Below the pieces are notes generated by a model. That model saw nothing but the letters and a program-made list of their open reading frames with translations, was not told the DNA's origin and made no database searches. A stretch of 64,000 nt of DNA from Isurus oxyrinchus (Eukaryota), in NCBI GenBank assembly GCA_026770705.1, contig JANJGN010000015.1:118296001-118360000 (forward strand), given 5' to 3'. A program made the translations under genes and the position numbers. The stretch's first letter is position 1. Every line of letters begins with the position of its first letter. Below are positions 9,645 to 59,329 of this stretch, one piece after another.

Positions 9645-10082
9645 ATCCAGTGGCTCACTGGTTTTATTTTTCACTGTGCCAGCTTTCCAGTGACCCTCAT
9701 ATTTGCTATGTCTCGCTGGTTTTCACTGTGTCTGCTATCCAGTGGCTCATTAGTTTTTCCTGTGTCTGCTATCCAGTGGCTCTCTGGTTTTTGGTGCCCC
9801 TTCTATACAGTGGCTCACTGGTTTTCAATGCCCCTGCTATCCAGTGGCTCAGTGGTTTTTGATGCCCCTTCTACCCAGTGGCTCACTGGTTTTTGATGCC
9901 CCTGCTATCCAGTGGCTCATTAGTTTTTCCTGTGTTTGCTATCCAGTGGCTCTCTGGTTTTTCCATGTCCCTGCTAACCAGTGGCTCACTGATTTTTGCT
10001 GCACCTGCTATCCAGTGGCTCACTGGTTTTTGCTGCACCTGCTATCCAGTGGCTCACTGGTTTTTGATGCCCCCGCTATCCA
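9645..10082 (+). repeat. 34-bp minisatellite (CTGCTATCCAGTGGCTCACTGGTTTTTGATGCCC), about 12 copies
   Basis: Units start at about 9732, 9766, 9800, 9834, 9868, 9902, 9936, 9971, 10005, 10039, 10073. Confidence 0.93.
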
Positions 10083-10279
10083 TGTGTGAAGACACCAGGT
10101 GAGGAAAGCTTGAACATCAATGCCTCCATGGTTGAATATCCTCTTGACAGTTAGGAGGTTGCTGAAAACAAATGACTCATTGTAAACACACCCCAGAATC
10201 AGTCAGTGCCTTAGTCACTGCAAGAACATGGAGAGGAAAATGGAAAAGTATCACCGCATCATTGAAAGATCTTTGCATC

Positions 10280-39639: not shown

Positions 39640-40400
39640 AAACAAGATGGAAATGTAGAACCTTTACAGCATAATAAGAGGCCATTCAGCCTATCATGAA
39701 AAACAGCTGACCAGTGTAATCCCACTTCCCAGCTCTTGGCCCATAGCTCTGTAGGTTGCAACATTTCAAGTTCACATCCAAGGACTTTATTTGTTAAATG
39801 CAACAGGGGTTTCTGCCTCTACCACCCTTTAAGGCAGTGAGTTCCAGACCACCCATATGCTCGGGGCGAAAACATTTCTCCTTGAGTCCCCTCTAACCTT
39901 CTGCCAATTACTTTAAATTTGTGCCCTGGTTATTGGCGTACTTATCGAGGGAAATAGATTCTTTCTGTACACCCCCTTGAATTCTTCCCTCATCCTCCTC
40001 TATTGCATACAAATAACAACCCGAGCCCATCCAATCCTTTCTCGTCGCTAAAATTCTCCAGTCCAGGTAAATCCTCATAAACCTCTCCATATACTCTCTG
40101 GTGCAATTACATCCTTCCTGGAATATGGTGATCAGAACTGTGCACTGTATTCGAGCTGTGGCCCAGCTAGCATTTTATGCAATGAGAAAAGCAGAAGATG
40201 CTGGAAATGCTCAGCAGGCCAGGCAGCATCCATGGAGAGAGAAAAAATGTTAATGTTTCAGGTCGATGGCCATTCATCAACATTTTGTACAGGTCTAACA
40301 TAACCTCCCTGTTCTTATATTCTATGCCTTGGCTAATAAGGGAAAATATCCCATATGTCCTCTTGACCACCTTACTCACCTGTCCTGCTATATTCAGGGA
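39640..40400 (-). mobile_element. CR1 3' fragment with a nested Penelope-tail piece (about 40180-40280), abutting the truncated Gypsy
   Basis: GIEYKNREVMLDLYKML. CR1 3' end. Confidence 0.7.
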
Positions 40401-41664
40401 TGAGTGATTTGTCTCTCTCTTCATTAAACGGTCCACATGTTTATGGATGACCTGGTCTTCCACCTCCACGTGGTAAGATAGAGGTCCAGTCACTGCACTG
40501 ATTTCGCCCGGTAACCACTTTGGTCCTACCCCAAAGTTTTTCAGGTACGTCGGCTCTCCCACGGTAAATTTCCTCTCACGACTATGCCAGTTGTGTCTAG
40601 TTTACTGGCTTCCCTGACTCCTTTCCACCTTCCCTTCTAAATTCAGTGTTATCAAGCTCAATCTCGTCCTGAGATGTTGTTTCAACAATAACTCCACAGG
40701 TGTGACACCTGTTGTTGTGTGAGGGGTAGAGCTGTAATGGAAAAGAAAGCGTGCTAGCTTGGTTGCCAAGGAATCGTCAGTTACCTTTCTCATGCCTGCC
40801 TTGAATGTTTGAACTGCCCTTTTGGCCAGTCTGTTTGAGGAAGGGTGGTACGGTGCAGTGTTCACATGAGTGATGCCGTTGAGGCTGATAAACCGTTGAA
40901 ACTCAGCACTCGTAAATGCCGTGCTGTTATTGGAAACGACTACTTCTGGTAGTCAGTGAATGGCAAAAACTCTGACATAGTTTCTCAATTGTAGGCCCGA
41001 TGTTGGTGACATCACCTCATATACGTCCAATCATTTTGAATGGGCATCGACAATGAGCAGAAACACTGTTCCCAGGAAAGGTCCAATGTAGTCAATGTGT
41101 AACCAGACCCAGGGTCTACCTGGCCACTCCCACAGGTGTAACGGAGCTGTCACTCTCAACTTTTGCAGTTTCTGACATTGCACACAGTGCTTTATTAAAC
41201 TCTCTATTTCACCATCCATCCCAGGCCTCCATAGACAGCTGCATGCTACGGTCTTCATTCAGGAAATTCCTGGGTGGGCACTGTGTAGTTCAATTAAAAG
41301 TGACTCCCTTCCCTTTGGAGGAACTATCACTCATGCTTCCCACAATAAGATGCCATCCTGGCTGGTTATTTCATGTCTCCTGTTGAAGTACAATTTCATT
41401 TTGTCAGATATGGGCTCCTGAGACCAACCAAGTAGCACTTGTTCTCGCACTTGAGATAGGACTGGGTTCCGACTTGTCCAGTCTCTGATCTGTTGAGCAC
41501 ATACCTGCAAGGAATCTAAAAAATTTAACAGTAAAACAAGTTCCTGTGGAACTGGGACGTGGTCATCATTTTCTTGTAAAGGCAAACGACTAAGGACATC
41601 GGTGTTTGCAATTTGATTGCCAGACCGGTGTATGAAAGTGTATTCTAACGTTGCCAGAATTAAA

Positions 41665-42272
41665 ATCCTATTAGTATTTCTGCATCATCTTCATACGTGC
41701 CTTCATCTTTCTAGCACAGGCTTTAATCTCCGACTTCTTTTTGACTTCACTATTGGCCAGATTTCTCTCAGATGCAAGCTCAACTTGTCTGAACTCAGTG
41801 ACTGAGTCTCCCAAAATTTCATTATCTGTCTGATTCTTGGAAAATTCTGTGATTTGCTTCCAAAGCCTCTTTGGCTTTATTTAGCTGATTCTTCAGCTCT
41901 TCCATCTCTTTTTTGTATTGTTTGCTGCCTCATGGAAGATTGAACATTGTTGCATCTCCTCTGCCAACTCATTCTTCAGTTTGTTCAGAGAAGTGTTGAA
42001 TTCTTTCTGTTTCTCTTCATACTTTTCCAGAGGTACAAACATTGACTTGAGGGAACCTTGTCGTGTGTGAAGATCTTTCAACAGGTTTTCTTTTTCCCTG
42101 AGAAGGTTGTCCATCTCATCTCGAACTCTGTCATCAAGCAGGGTCTCATTGAGTTCCTTCTGCTGGTCTTCCAAGTTTGGTTTAGGACAGCCTACATTTC
42201 TTCAGGTTGTTGAGTCCTTACACACTCCTTTTCCAAAACAGCAATGCTTCCAGCTTCCTTTTGGATTCCCAG
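41665..42272 (-). pseudogene. Captured host coiled-coil gene fragment (UACA/RAI14/ANKRD24-family-like) inside the Gypsy pol region
   Basis: EMDNLLREKENLLKDL..GSLKSMFVPLEKYEEKQKEFNTSLNKLKNELAEEMQQC resembles the UACA coiled coil as recalled (EMEKLLLENDSLSKDVSRLETVFVPPEKHEKE..LKSNIVELKKQLSELKKKC). Frameshifted continuations on both sides. Confidence 0.6.
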
Positions 42273-43496
42273 TGGCCAATCAAGGTTGACTTCCCTTAGC
42301 CAATTTTGCCCTAGAGGGCTTGGTCCTCTGCCTCTCAATACTAATGCTGGTAGCTTTGCCGATTGGCTTCCATAATGGACAGTTACTCTGCTTATGCCTT
42401 TTACTTGAATGTTCTCATCTGTATACGTTTCTAGTTTGGCAGCTGTTTGTTCCAAACTTAACTGATGTTCACCATTATTCAAATATCTGTAGGTTCCCCA
42501 ATTACTGTAGTGGAAGCTCCTGTGTCCACTTCCATTCTAACAGGTTTGCCATTTACTTTCACTGTGACAAATATTGGTTCTGTCTTTCCAACTTTCAGAT
42601 TAAACGAATAAATGTCAAAATTTGTTGTTTCAGGCTCTTCTACATTGTAGATTTCATTGGGCTTCTTCTTTTGTGTGCAAGCCTGCTTGAATATTTCCTT
42701 ACACTGTCTCATCACATGTCCATTTCTGTGGCAATAGCAGCATTCGATTTTGCATAGGCTGTTTTCCGCTTCTCGGCCGAGTCTCACTTTTTCGCACCAC
42801 TTTCAGCTGAGGTTCCCTGCCCGACGTGGAGGATGGCGCCATTTTTGCGCACCCTGTATTGCTTTCAAATCTCTTACTCCACTTTCCAGCGCTATCTCTA
42901 GCACCTTCTTGAAATCCGGATTCACTTCAGACAATAATGTTTTCTGAATAGTGTCCTCTTTCACACCACACACTAAACGATCTCTGAGCGTACCGTTAGG
43001 AGCTGTACTGAACTCACAATGTTCCGTTAGCTGCTTCAAATTTGCCACATAGCATGCAATTGTCTCACCCGAGGCTCTATTTTGTGAATTAAACCTGAAC
43101 CTCTGCATCGTGACTGAGGGCTTGGATTGAAAGCGACCCTTTACGAGGTCCACCAATTTACTGAGGTTTTTTGAATCTGGGGCATTGGGTGCTGTCAAGC
43201 TTCAAATCAAGCCATAGGTTTTGCTCCCACAAGTACTCAAGAGGATTGCTTGCCTCTTCTCTTCCCCATAATCTCATTCGCTTGAACAAGGAACGTGAGG
43301 CATTCCATGTATTGAGACCAATCGTCTGTGGCTGGTTCAAAAGGATCAATTCTCCAAAATTATGGCATTTTGAGAGGGGATAACTTCTCCAATTCTAACA
43401 GAGCTTGCTGCTTACAATCACTGGGTGAGGTACAGTGCCGAATTCTTTTTAACTTGATTTCTTCTTTTCAATTCTGTTTTATCCTCATTGCCAGTT

Positions 43497-43752
43497 TGTT
43501 GTAAGGTTGTAAGTTATACTATTAATGATGGAGTTGATCTGCAGACACTTTTTGGGGTGGAAATATTAAGTTTATTTACAAAATAGTTAGCAGCAACTAC
43601 AAGTGTGCTTTCAACTCCAGATCTATCTCTACACTGACCGTGGAGATAGCCTGCGCTTCTCTCCTATTGGTTACTACAGATCGTGTGATCTTCCCAAACA
43701 AGTATTATTCTTAAAGATACATTACACACTAAATAAAACCATAATTACTACA
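43497..43752 (-). repeat. 5' LTR of the Gypsy element; adjacent PBS-like TGGCAATGAGGAT at 43493-43481
   Basis: On the minus strand it begins TGTAGTAA and ends TTACAACA (imperfect terminal inverted repeat), contains AATAAA, and is followed by TGG. Confidence 0.75.
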
Positions 43753-44679
43753 AAGAGCAAAGTATAACCAGCACAAGCCAGTGCCTTTCACTTGTAAAAA
43801 TGATGCATCGAGCATTAAGGGTGCCTTCCTTCATCATGGTGTGCACTTGATGAAGCCTGATCTTCCCCAAACACCCATTGTGTAAAAGGAACCTCTGGTA
43901 CTTTGGAAAGATCCCAGGGACGTTTGCTGCTCAGCATTGAGTTGTCTGACCTCAGAGGGGCAGCAGTCAGAGTTTTACACCTGACCTCAGTCTTCCTGTG
44001 TGAGGGAAGGGGAAATCGCTGAGGAGTGACTGCTATCGAGCCATATTACTCAGGAGGGCACATGTGTGGATGAGATCAGCACTGGGCTTTGTTTTGAAGT
44101 CACCTGCAGTTGAATAGCTTAGAATCACTTTCCCGTCTCAGCTGACACACAAAGTAAATTAAACTGGGTGGGATTGGCGGGGTGGCTGTGAGGGATGTTG
44201 TGTCTGCCACAAGTCATGGGACAGTACCCCAATAAGAGTCATCACCTTCACAGGGGTACAGGGGAGGAAGCTGGAAGGAGAGATGTTTAAAAAAGGGCTG
44301 CAGAGTCAGAGCAGCATGCCCTCTCTCATACAGACAGCAAGTGCATCCACGGGCAAGCAGTGTGCTGAATCAACATGCTGGGACAGGAAAGTTTATCTTT
44401 CAGTTTACTGGCACAGAGGGCTGGGCAGTTCCTTCTCTATAGGTGACATCATGTGAAGAAGTCTTTGAAACAATGGAGAGAGAGTTAACCCCATCAGAAC
44501 CACAAAAAAGTTGAAGGTTTTTGCAACATGTCTAGGCAAATATCTGGGTGTTTTGAACATGTGCAGTTCTGAAAATCCTGGGTTAGAAATGATTACATTT
44601 ACCAAAATGATAGCAGGCAGTTCGGCCTGGACATTGACATGTTAGGCTGAGTTTTCACTTTACAGACAGGAAACAGGAG

Positions 44680-56859: not shown

Positions 56860-57322
56860 ACCGGCTAAAAAGCCCCTTGTCGGTTTGCTTTCCCGAAGGG
56901 ACATCAGCTGAAGATGTTGCATTTGCAACTTGGGTTTGACGCAGACGGTTCTTTGAGCACAATTGAACCATCTACTTGGTGTGCGGCTGAAAGCGGGAAT
57001 TGAAACCAAACTTCGAGCAGTTGTGAGGAGCCAAAATTCGGAATCGCCCCTCGATAGCGGGTCCCTGGTCACTGTAAACTCTAGCCAGGTAACGCTGAGC
57101 CAAGGAGAATCAGGGATTGACTGACTGACTGTCTGTGCCTGATGTGGTACCGCCTCTTTCATAGATTATTCAAGTCTCCTGTCATTAAATATTCAGCATG
57201 GTACAGCCCAGTGGGATTTGCCAGGGAGCAGTCGCCAGTGGAAAATGGTCACGCGTAAGAAAGTGAAAGAGGGCAAGAAAATCTGGGAATTAATGATTTG
57301 AAAAAAAAACACCACCCGGAAA
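56860..57322 (+). promoter_or_regulatory. CpG-enriched proximal promoter/5'UTR of ESPN, with a possible 76-nt 5'UTR intron (57089-57164)
   Basis: Non-repetitive and CpG-rich relative to its flanks. Donor CAG|GTAACG at 57089, CTGAC branch-like repeats near 57121, acceptor CTCTTTCATAG| at 57164. Confidence 0.5.
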
Positions 57323-57616
57323 ATGGTTTTGGATCGCGCTCTGGTCGCTGCCAAGAACGGCGATCTCCAAGCGCTGCAAGAGTTACAGAAGCAGGGGTTG
57401 ATCCATCAGAAAGTGACCGACCATCTCGGAGCTTCTCCGGTCCATCACGCCGCCCGCTCCGGCAAACTGAACGCTCTGAAATTCCTGGTGGACGAAGCGA
57501 AACTCCCCGGGAACAAGAAAGCCAAGAACGGGGCAACTCCGGCGCACGACGCGGCGGCCACCGGCAATTTGGTCTGTTTGCAGTGGCTGCTGAGCTCAGG
57601 GGGCTGTCAGTTACAG
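57323..57616 (+). CDS. ESPN: Espin, first coding exon (N-terminal ankyrin repeats)
   Basis: MVLDRALVAAKNGDLQ...PVHHAARSGKLNALKFLVDEAKLP...[32 protein letters not shown] closely matches the vertebrate espin N-terminus as recalled (MALEQALQAARQGEL...PVHHAARAGKLHCLRFL...[32 protein letters not shown]). It ends at a phase-0 donor CAG|GTAAGG after 98 codons. ESPNL paralogy is not formally excluded. Confidence 0.92.
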
Positions 57617-57644
57617 GTAAGGAGGAAATGTGGCTGGTGCCCCG

Positions 57645-57975
57645 GGCGGGGGCAATGGGGCTGGTACTGGGGACTGCAGCTGGGGGGCAGAGGAGCTGGA
57701 GGCAATGGGGCAGGAGCTGGGGGTAATGGGGCAGGAGCTGGGGGTAATGGGGCAGGAGCTGGGTACTGGAGCTGGGGGCAGAGGAGCTGGGGGCAGAGGA
57801 GCTGGAGGCAATGGGGCAGGAGCTGGGGGTAATGGGGCAGGAACTGGGTACTGGAGCTGGGGGCAGAGGAGCTGGGGTCAGAGGAGCTGGAGGCAATGGG
57901 GCAGAGGAGCTGGAGGTAATGTGGCAGGAGTTAGGGGTAATGGGGCAGGAGCTGGAACGGGAGCTGGGGGCAGTG
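57645..57975 (+). repeat. G-rich minisatellite (~21-bp units such as GGGGCAGGAGCTGGGGGTAAT) at the start of ESPN intron 1
   Basis: Directly visible tandem variants of GGAGCTGGGGG/GGCAATGGGGCA. Confidence 0.9.
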
Positions 57976-59329
57976 AGGTGGGCGTGTGGAAAGGTTCTGG
58001 GGCACTGGGGCTGCGGACGTGAGCAGTGGGGCATAGATGGAGAAGAGTAGTGGGGTTGGCTGCAGTGAGACTTGGGTGTGGGGAAGGGGATAGCGGGGCT
58101 GGGGTTGGGGCACTATAGCTTGGGGCTGGGAGAGAGGGTCTGGGAGCTGGAAACTGATTGCTGGAATATGGCTCACTGGATGGGGAGATGTCACTCAAAC
58201 TTTTCCAAAAGGCCTCTGATCATAGGAGTTAGCACCTATGGATGGTGATGGATCTATTGATGGGAATAACTCTCTACACAGTTCTAATGTTTCCCAATTA
58301 TCATAATCACGCTGCTTATAATTCTGAGAACAGTAAAATCATATGCTGAGTAAAGGCGAATTGTTACCATTTAAACCCAAACGCTAAGATTTGAATGTGC
58401 TTCATAATAATTTTAACTGTGTCATGAATGATTTTTTTCAATGTACAACTAGTAGAGCATGAATTGTCTTGACAGAGCCTATGTGAACTTCAGAAAGAGT
58501 TGGGAACATTAAAAGTTGGGTAGTTATTCACAGACTGGCTTCTCCTGTTAATCTCATTTCAATGGATTAGTGTTTGCCTTACAAAGTACAAAACAAATAC
58601 AATACCTTTCACAAGATTCAGACTTTCGGAGCCTGTTGCTATAGGATCTGAGCTCCTACACTGCAGTAAAATCTGGGAAAAATTGAGTAACTGCCCCTCT
58701 TTATTCCTTGTGCAATCTCCTGCTGCTTCCCATTATTCTTTATGTTACCTTCTCTTGCATTTCATTGACCCTGGCACAGTTTGATCCTGTGTTGCATTTT
58801 TCTGGGTGTAATTGCCTTTTGGAATCAATTTCCCTATGTAATTCCTTTTTCTATCCTGTTGATCTCCATGTAATCCTTTCTGAATTTTATTAGTCTCCTT
58901 GTGACTCCTCCAGCTGCCTTGCAAATGTTTCCTCCTACCTAATTTGTGACCCCAAACAACTTTCTATTATTCTTTGTACAATTTTCTTTTATAACCAGTT
59001 AATCAGCTCCTTTATCCTCTCCTACCTGTCCCTTATTTTATGCAGTTCGATCCTTCAATCTTTCTTCCTACCCCTCTTCCTATCCCTTTGTAATTTCCTC
59101 CTGCATTTCCACTTTCTCTTTGAACCTCCCTCTCACCTTCTGCTTCTTTTCACTGAAACATCTTTATGTCTTTATTATTCTCTGCCTTCCTCCTCCCTCG
59201 GTTATTTATTCTGTAACTACCGCCTACAACAAAGAGGGCTAGGGGGAATCATTGAAGTTAAATAGAAAGATTATAAAAAAAAACAGGTTTTAGTACAAGA
59301 ATATGGACTGATTATAAATTAGTATAACG

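Follow-up and report, generated by a model that had tools for sequence, protein, structure and literature searches.

A high-copy non-autonomous Gypsy family of Isurus oxyrinchus with a UACA-derived coiled coil in place of reverse transcriptase, probably obtained second-hand from older LTR elements

The window analyzed here is a 64,000-nucleotide stretch of contig JANJGN010000015.1 of Isurus oxyrinchus (G000:C15:118296001-118360000), within a 4.98-Gb genome. Six-frame reading showed that its minus strand carries a Gypsy retrotransposon in which an LTR, gag, protease (PR), a coiled-coil insert, the end of RNase H, and integrase (IN) follow one another in that order. The element is interrupted at 40404 by LINE-like sequence, and no 3' LTR of the element remains in the window. 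Its parts are listed here in the order in which they are read.

43497..43752, minus strand: 5' LTR of Gypsy family G, TGT...ACA, 81-84% identical to both LTRs of the full-length copies L127 and L135
43481..43493, minus strand: primer-binding-site-like motif directly after the LTR, identical in an autonomous sibling
42600..43368, minus strand: gag, broken in the window copy, with a zinc-knuckle-like end and ~100 nt absent near 42755
42352..42600, minus strand: aspartyl protease body, with PF13650 above the cut-off in the natural frame P0002
42236..42351, minus strand: diverged tail of the protease with linker, differing from the autonomous siblings in 15 of 60 aligned columns
41889..42235, minus strand: UACA piece 1, host exon L031 3005-3356, about aa 909-1026 of P0004, 70.7% nt and 52% aa identity
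41790..41897, minus strand: UACA piece 2, host exon L031 3798-3909, its joint to piece 1 common to U2 elements
41710..41789, minus strand: start of the non-UACA coil X, which extends further in U elements and there connects UACA with TPR in frame
41667..41709, minus strand: stop of the fused frame and short-form joint, with the thumb/RNase H deletion at GGGC(C)
40404..41666, minus strand: RNase H C terminus and integrase, not in the frame of the fused ORF; PF17921 in the sister copy L004

This anatomy agrees with the original prediction that the protease ends near 42272, that the RNase H C terminus begins at about 41664, and that a coil lies between them on the minus strand. The limits given there for the host-derived segment held in part: a coil is indeed at this place, but UACA homology starts at 42235 rather than 42272, and the last ~80 nt of the insert (~41789-41710) are non-UACA. 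The interval between protease and RNase H contains no RT motif in an RT context, as had also been predicted; a scan for [YF]xDD over 40400-43800 returned one minus-strand YEDD, in the insert tail and without RT context, and one plus-strand FMDD. The tested gag frame gave no match in Pfam, and the protease tail at 42236..42351 likely derives from an older Gypsy lineage. At the short-form joint the RT thumb and RNase H (~600 nt) are missing, and the ends of this deletion overlap by 4-5 nt, GGGC(C); it is the N-terminal part of RT alone that was swapped for the insert, the thumb and RNase H having been lost by a separate deletion. The coil stretch of the window copy contains one stop plus frameshifts, and the window element belongs, as a dead copy, to a non-autonomous Gypsy family with a UACA-derived coil in place of RT. 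Elsewhere in the window, an ankyrin-repeat exon (Pfam Ank_2) that we take to be espin-like lies at 57302-57620 on the plus strand and is followed by a G-rich tandem repeat (~57690-57990), and a tandem array with a period of 34 nt occupies 9686-10116.

The assignment of the insert to the host gene UACA, proposed from the letters of the window, was borne out by comparison with both the gene and its proteins. The insert is 70.7% identical at the nucleotide level over 352 nt (E, 8e-55) to the host UACA exon (L031, G000:C25:4881192-4883918), and host UACA and its white-shark counterpart are 99% identical. When P0003, a naturally open insert copy, was compared with 5.8 billion proteins, it matched shark UACA at 52-54% (best E, 1e-27); the four matches among 7,998 scored candidates were three shark UACA proteins and one white-shark gene model containing element sequence. 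Pfam gave no family for the insert, and protein-atlas searches with it gave only generic coils. The two UACA pieces meet across a 441-nt in-frame deletion with 9 nt of microhomology. All of the UACA pieces in elements lie inside one exon, without an exon joint, and UACA sequence from other exons was found in no element locus; because it falls within one exon, the UACA piece itself cannot prove an mRNA origin.

The multicopy, non-autonomous family that the original prediction had envisaged is present throughout the genome. Two junction-side patterns had 612 and 714 genome matches, with none for the controls, giving at least 714 copies and an estimate of ~1,500 from the 12 of 30 position-ordered loci that also held the other junction-side pattern. 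Protease and insert were found together in all 30 of these loci, of which 6 were of the long form, a chimera keeping the RT thumb and RNase H, and 24 lacked the thumb; the short form is without both. The layout was alike in nearly all of the 30 copies fetched after a search with the insert DNA, for which 40 of 3,668 first-look candidates had been scored. Full short copies measure ~4.0 kb and have TG...CA ends and 5-bp target duplications, which were clear at L127, L131, and L137, contained one mismatch at L125, and were unreadable or unscored at the remaining loci. The TG...CA LTRs, the primer-binding site, and the short target duplication are as for a Ty3/Gypsy LTR retrotransposon. Two further copies on the same contig, L002 (G000:C15:119.97 Mb) and L003 (117.47 Mb), are 94-99% identical to the window copy in patches, where 88% is typical, and have the stop codon of that copy without the LINE beside it, a likeness that looks like local gene conversion or duplication. 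Contigs of 4 runs, out of 24 listed, bridge the joint between PR and UACA at ~85-90% likeness, these runs being only presumed to be RNA.

Intact relatives of the family have RT at the place of the insert, as expected if RT had been replaced. Of 30 loci recovered with the thumb piece, 2 were long chimeras, 3 belonged to a form termed GU (described below), and 25 lacked the insert; a YLDD-type motif was found in 12 of the 30, among the 25 without insert. The autonomous siblings have matches to RVT_1 and RNase H, and the domain order gag-PR-RT-RNase H-IN is present. LTR-pair K2P distances, with pairs of <30 aligned bases (L130, L136, and L059) left out, were 0.09-0.195 in chimeras (7 usable pairs) versus 0.13-0.18 in autonomous copies (4 pairs), and from this similarity the chimeric and autonomous copies appear to have spread together. 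Since the chimeric form lacks RT, RT would have to come from a helper, and chimeric copies probably integrated singly via the RT, and probably the IN, of the same-age autonomous siblings. Absence of RT, many independent integrations, and a helper of the same age, features of a non-autonomous LTR family, are found here. Three other readings were also set aside. The insert is not a transposable element of its own with target duplications, as it stands in place of RT and is bounded by recombination joints; it is not a native Gypsy domain, since same-age siblings keep full RT at that place; and a single chimeric copy is excluded by the pattern matches and the 30 loci.

A genome search with UACA found not only the gene but also numerous loci, 29 of them fetched, whose UACA pieces are longer and ~74-86% identical at the nt level and which have no match to the window gag or pol. 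The elements at these loci, U1 and U2, are pol-less, are 3-4.5 kb long, and have their own LTRs and primer sites; 19 of the 29 loci were assigned to U2 by the window's 3356>3798 deletion joint. At the start of L053 and L056 are U2 elements with a doubled LTR end and primer-binding site. Another UACA-carrying form is seen at L096, L104, L113, and L119; UACA is joined directly to the integrase C terminus in the last three, and the LTRs of L096 are only 67-70% like those of the window. Altogether, hundreds to thousands of copies carry the UACA cargo, distributed over five or more element forms whose LTR types differ.

The U elements fuse UACA with two further pieces, and all of the identified cargo is coiled coil. 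The U1 element L140 contains a further coil above the Pfam cut-off for nucleoprotein TPR (PF25481), and the host TPR locus was located with PF07926. The element TPR piece corresponds to ~9 host segments that are spread over 17 kb, have AG/GT edges, and are joined end to end in the element, with exon joints flush within 6 nt in 28/29, 30/30, 23/30, 14/30, and 14/28 copies. A 22-mer across an exon joint had 128 genome matches, versus 3 for the control. Because host exons are joined without introns, these elements demonstrate, at the level of sequence, capture of the TPR piece from a spliced mRNA; the loss of introns by which LTR-mediated retrocopies are recognized is thus seen for TPR in the U elements. 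The TPR piece is present at no fewer than 150 loci: among 2,629 candidates, the 150 that were scored gave 160 matches. Of the 30 TPR-piece loci that were fetched, 21 contain UACA as well. U2 retains a TPR remnant, and the window insert gave no TPR match. Between UACA and TPR in the U elements sits coil X, the first ~80 nt of which are present in the window; its source was not found in Pfam, PDB, the atlas, the shark's own genome, or BLAST against UACA proteins and 200 kb of the TPR locus. A natural 253-aa frame reads UACA-X-TPR.

Comparison of the window insert with these elements points away from the direct switch of the window's Gypsy RT onto UACA mRNA that the original prediction had proposed. 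The window insert and U2 have in common both the joint of the 3356>3798 deletion and the tail that is not UACA, and the insert sides with U2 against the host at 41 sites and with the host against U2 at 16. A protein tree was built from 23 element copies, the host sequence, and 14 UACA proteins of cartilaginous fishes; the element pieces in it all group as a single clade (support, 99), and the window family is nested in U2 (support, 99). On account of the common joint and tail, the nesting, and the site counts, the insert was most likely acquired from older pol-less U-type LTR elements rather than straight from UACA mRNA. A bridging form, GU, has a helper LTR (25 of 30 loci), a U-like body, and helper 3' pol. 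Column majorities of the window family differ from the autonomous siblings, or helper, by 2.9% at the gag end, 0.3% in the protease body (42750-42352), 25% in the protease tail, and 1.9% in the RNase H end and integrase (40404..41666); its 5' insert is 19% from U2, and its 3' insert is 1.6% from GU. Judged by these sequences, the window element is a mosaic in which an old cargo cassette is flanked by the gag-PR and the IN of the helper. The direct donor, with the old protease tail and 5' UACA in older flanks, was absent from the 30 position-ordered loci. Microhomology, which had been suggested as a check on the junctions, was found at the internal deletion (9 nt) and the short-form joint (4-5 nt) but not at the old outer joints, which have only A-runs, these figures being raw overlap lengths. 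LTR-pair K2P distances of U elements (0.14-0.25; 5 usable pairs) overlap those of G, so that the order of events rests on the tree and not on LTR dates. In GU (L091-L120, ~2050-2250 in element orientation), a 30-nt repeat array plus ~90 nt replaces part of UACA, and the ~90-nt segment ends the frame at a stop common to GU copies.

The element UACA clade branches at the lamniform/carcharhiniform split (support of 77 for the trio), which took place roughly 170-190 million years ago. At lamnid-derived columns, U1 has the residue of the other sharks in 15 of 15 cases, and the window insert has lamnid-derived UACA residues at 0 of 8 covered columns. At 8 carcharhiniform-derived columns, U1 and U2 have the carcharhiniform residue at 2 and the other state at 5. 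The G and U2 forms are the best matches of two RefSeq gene models of the basking shark, P0086 and P0087, and the cargo appears to predate the basking-shark split.

In one copy, a natural 438-aa ORF runs through the gag end, protease, and coil and stops just past the coil, and integrase lies outside this Gag-PR-coil frame. The majority codons of G (~150) contain 0 stops, versus 3.2-4.5 expected under drift (P, 0.009-0.037). The ML estimate of omega for G versus U2 was 0.62 (p = 0.068 against 1 and p = 0.006 against the singleton baseline of 1.28), that for U1 versus U2 was 0.66 (p = 0.1), and that for U1 versus the host was 1.10. The within-family selection test was non-significant everywhere, and since this included the RT control, the test was without power. 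A Nei-Gojobori omega of 0.34 was set aside, given a neutral baseline of 0.5-0.6, and the ML values were used; the omega of 0.32 for the TPR majority versus the host includes the host branch and so is no evidence for the elements; and an excess of synonymous shared variants disappeared after CpG sites were removed. There is modest support for the frame having been kept open by selection, and the coil is most likely an in-frame filler under weak selection for openness, not for host function. A second, ATG-led frame (window 41869-41690, minus strand) is open into the RNase H end and integrase in many short-form copies; since GU has this frame open too, without its leading into anything, it is likely due to chance.

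We consider it likely that G is a high-copy non-autonomous Gypsy family that obtained its UACA coil second-hand, via template switching with an older cargo-carrying LTR family. Near the lamniform/carcharhiniform split, a timing taken from the tree, a Gypsy-type element would have gained a segment of the large UACA exon together with spliced TPR mRNA and another, third coil, giving rise to pol-less U elements with a single fused coil frame, the anatomy and splicing of which are observed. Microhomology deletions, whose joints are preserved, would have cut this cargo down into subfamilies. Recombination with a second Gypsy helper lineage would have produced GU, with helper LTRs and 3' pol around the U body, and also the gag-PR-coil form, where the mosaic is observed and RT template switching is its presumed cause. 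Further deletion of the thumb and RNase H would have led to the window's 4.0-kb short form, and copies would have inserted singly with the RT, and probably the IN, of the same-age autonomous siblings.

Direct capture, in which the RT of the window's Gypsy switched onto UACA mRNA and back, follows the published model (PMC5131818) and would account for the sense orientation, the replaced pol, and the real UACA homology. It would, however, require the identical 441-nt deletion and the non-UACA tail to arise twice, and the insert nests in U2, with none of the 8 lamnid-derived residues, despite flanks near-identical to the young helper, which makes this route extremely unlikely. Transfer of the cargo from another shark lineage would make it look ancestral, in keeping with the two carcharhiniform residues of U1 and U2, but the other state at five of the eight columns, the position of the clade at the base of both orders, and the presence of both forms in the basking shark render such a transfer very improbable. 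The same mosaic might also have arisen at the DNA level by ectopic recombination or gene conversion between genomic copies, followed by amplification. DNA repair, too, uses short overlaps such as those at the joints, and two copies within ~1.7 Mb show the patchy identity to the window copy noted above; the spliced TPR piece nevertheless requires an RNA step, and several distinct joints all lie between same-orientation elements, as co-packaged RNAs predict. Recombination between DNA copies is accordingly an improbable source of the mosaic, and second-hand acquisition by template switching is preferred.

A usefulness of the fused coil protein to the elements, whether by oligomerizing with Gag or by decoying TPR of the nuclear basket so that unspliced RNA of the elements can be exported, is a doubtful but conceivable addition. 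Depletion of TPR increases export of unspliced Gag/Pol-CTE RNA (PMC3258255), and the decoy idea would lean on this effect. The identified cargo, all of it coiled coil and fused in one frame, and the lack of a majority stop in G would suit such a role. Yet subfamilies freely delete different parts, the GU frame stops early, the window family has no TPR match, and omega is only ~0.6; the repeated codons of coils favor in-frame joints anyway, and the capture of coil genes may reflect long A-rich mRNAs. Equally speculative is the fuller proposal that a coil from three host genes (UACA, an unnamed gene, and TPR) was kept translated and passed between Gypsy helpers for >100 million years, aiding the export or packaging of its own RNA.

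Oncogene-transducing retroviruses and defective-interfering genomes carry host sequence in place of pol, fused to Gag, and are helper dependent. The shark insert likewise replaces pol, is fused to Gag, and would depend on a helper, whereas neither env nor any sign of a host phenotype was seen for the shark elements and their amplification took place in the germ line over a long time. Among cellular elements, LTR-mediated retroposition in animals, zebrafish, chicken, and mammals included, has been described by Tan et al. (2016; PMC5131818): in the portion of that account used here, pieces of host mRNA replace the internal ORFs of LTR elements, with short overlaps, multigene chimeras, and secondary non-autonomous rounds. 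Host pieces in place of internal ORFs and multigene chimeras are also seen in the shark elements, as are short overlaps at some joints, and secondary non-autonomous rounds are likely. The retrocopies described in that portion are young, two of them, in Drosophila, occupying more than one site, and sharks are not mentioned there; the shark cargo, in contrast, has reached hundreds to thousands of copies in five or more forms and appears to predate the basking-shark split. The maize LTR element Bs1 combines pieces of three host genes in a hybrid ORF and, as summarized in a review (PMC13317346), is a plant chimeric gene that is transcribed and translated. The shark elements similarly join several host-gene pieces in a hybrid ORF; unlike Bs1, they constitute a vertebrate family of dead copies whose cargo would have been handed between Gypsy lineages. 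The mechanism class has already been published, and the new and well-supported aspect is an old, multigene, high-copy capture, probably relayed between Gypsy lineages.

The open-access literature yielded no account of the shark system, and a repeat library may already contain the shark families unnamed. The system represents retrovirus-style gene capture followed by genome-wide amplification in a vertebrate germ line, and because its intermediates are preserved, the hand-over of cargo, recombination between helper and parasite, and selection on a captured ORF can be measured on hundreds of copies. It also carries a risk for annotation, as element pieces are already predicted as genes in the white and basking sharks and can pass for UACA or TPR paralogs. 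One white-shark MHC-class-I-like gene model, P0007, includes a gag piece and an insert piece of the family as predicted exons, which may be an annotation artifact or exonization.
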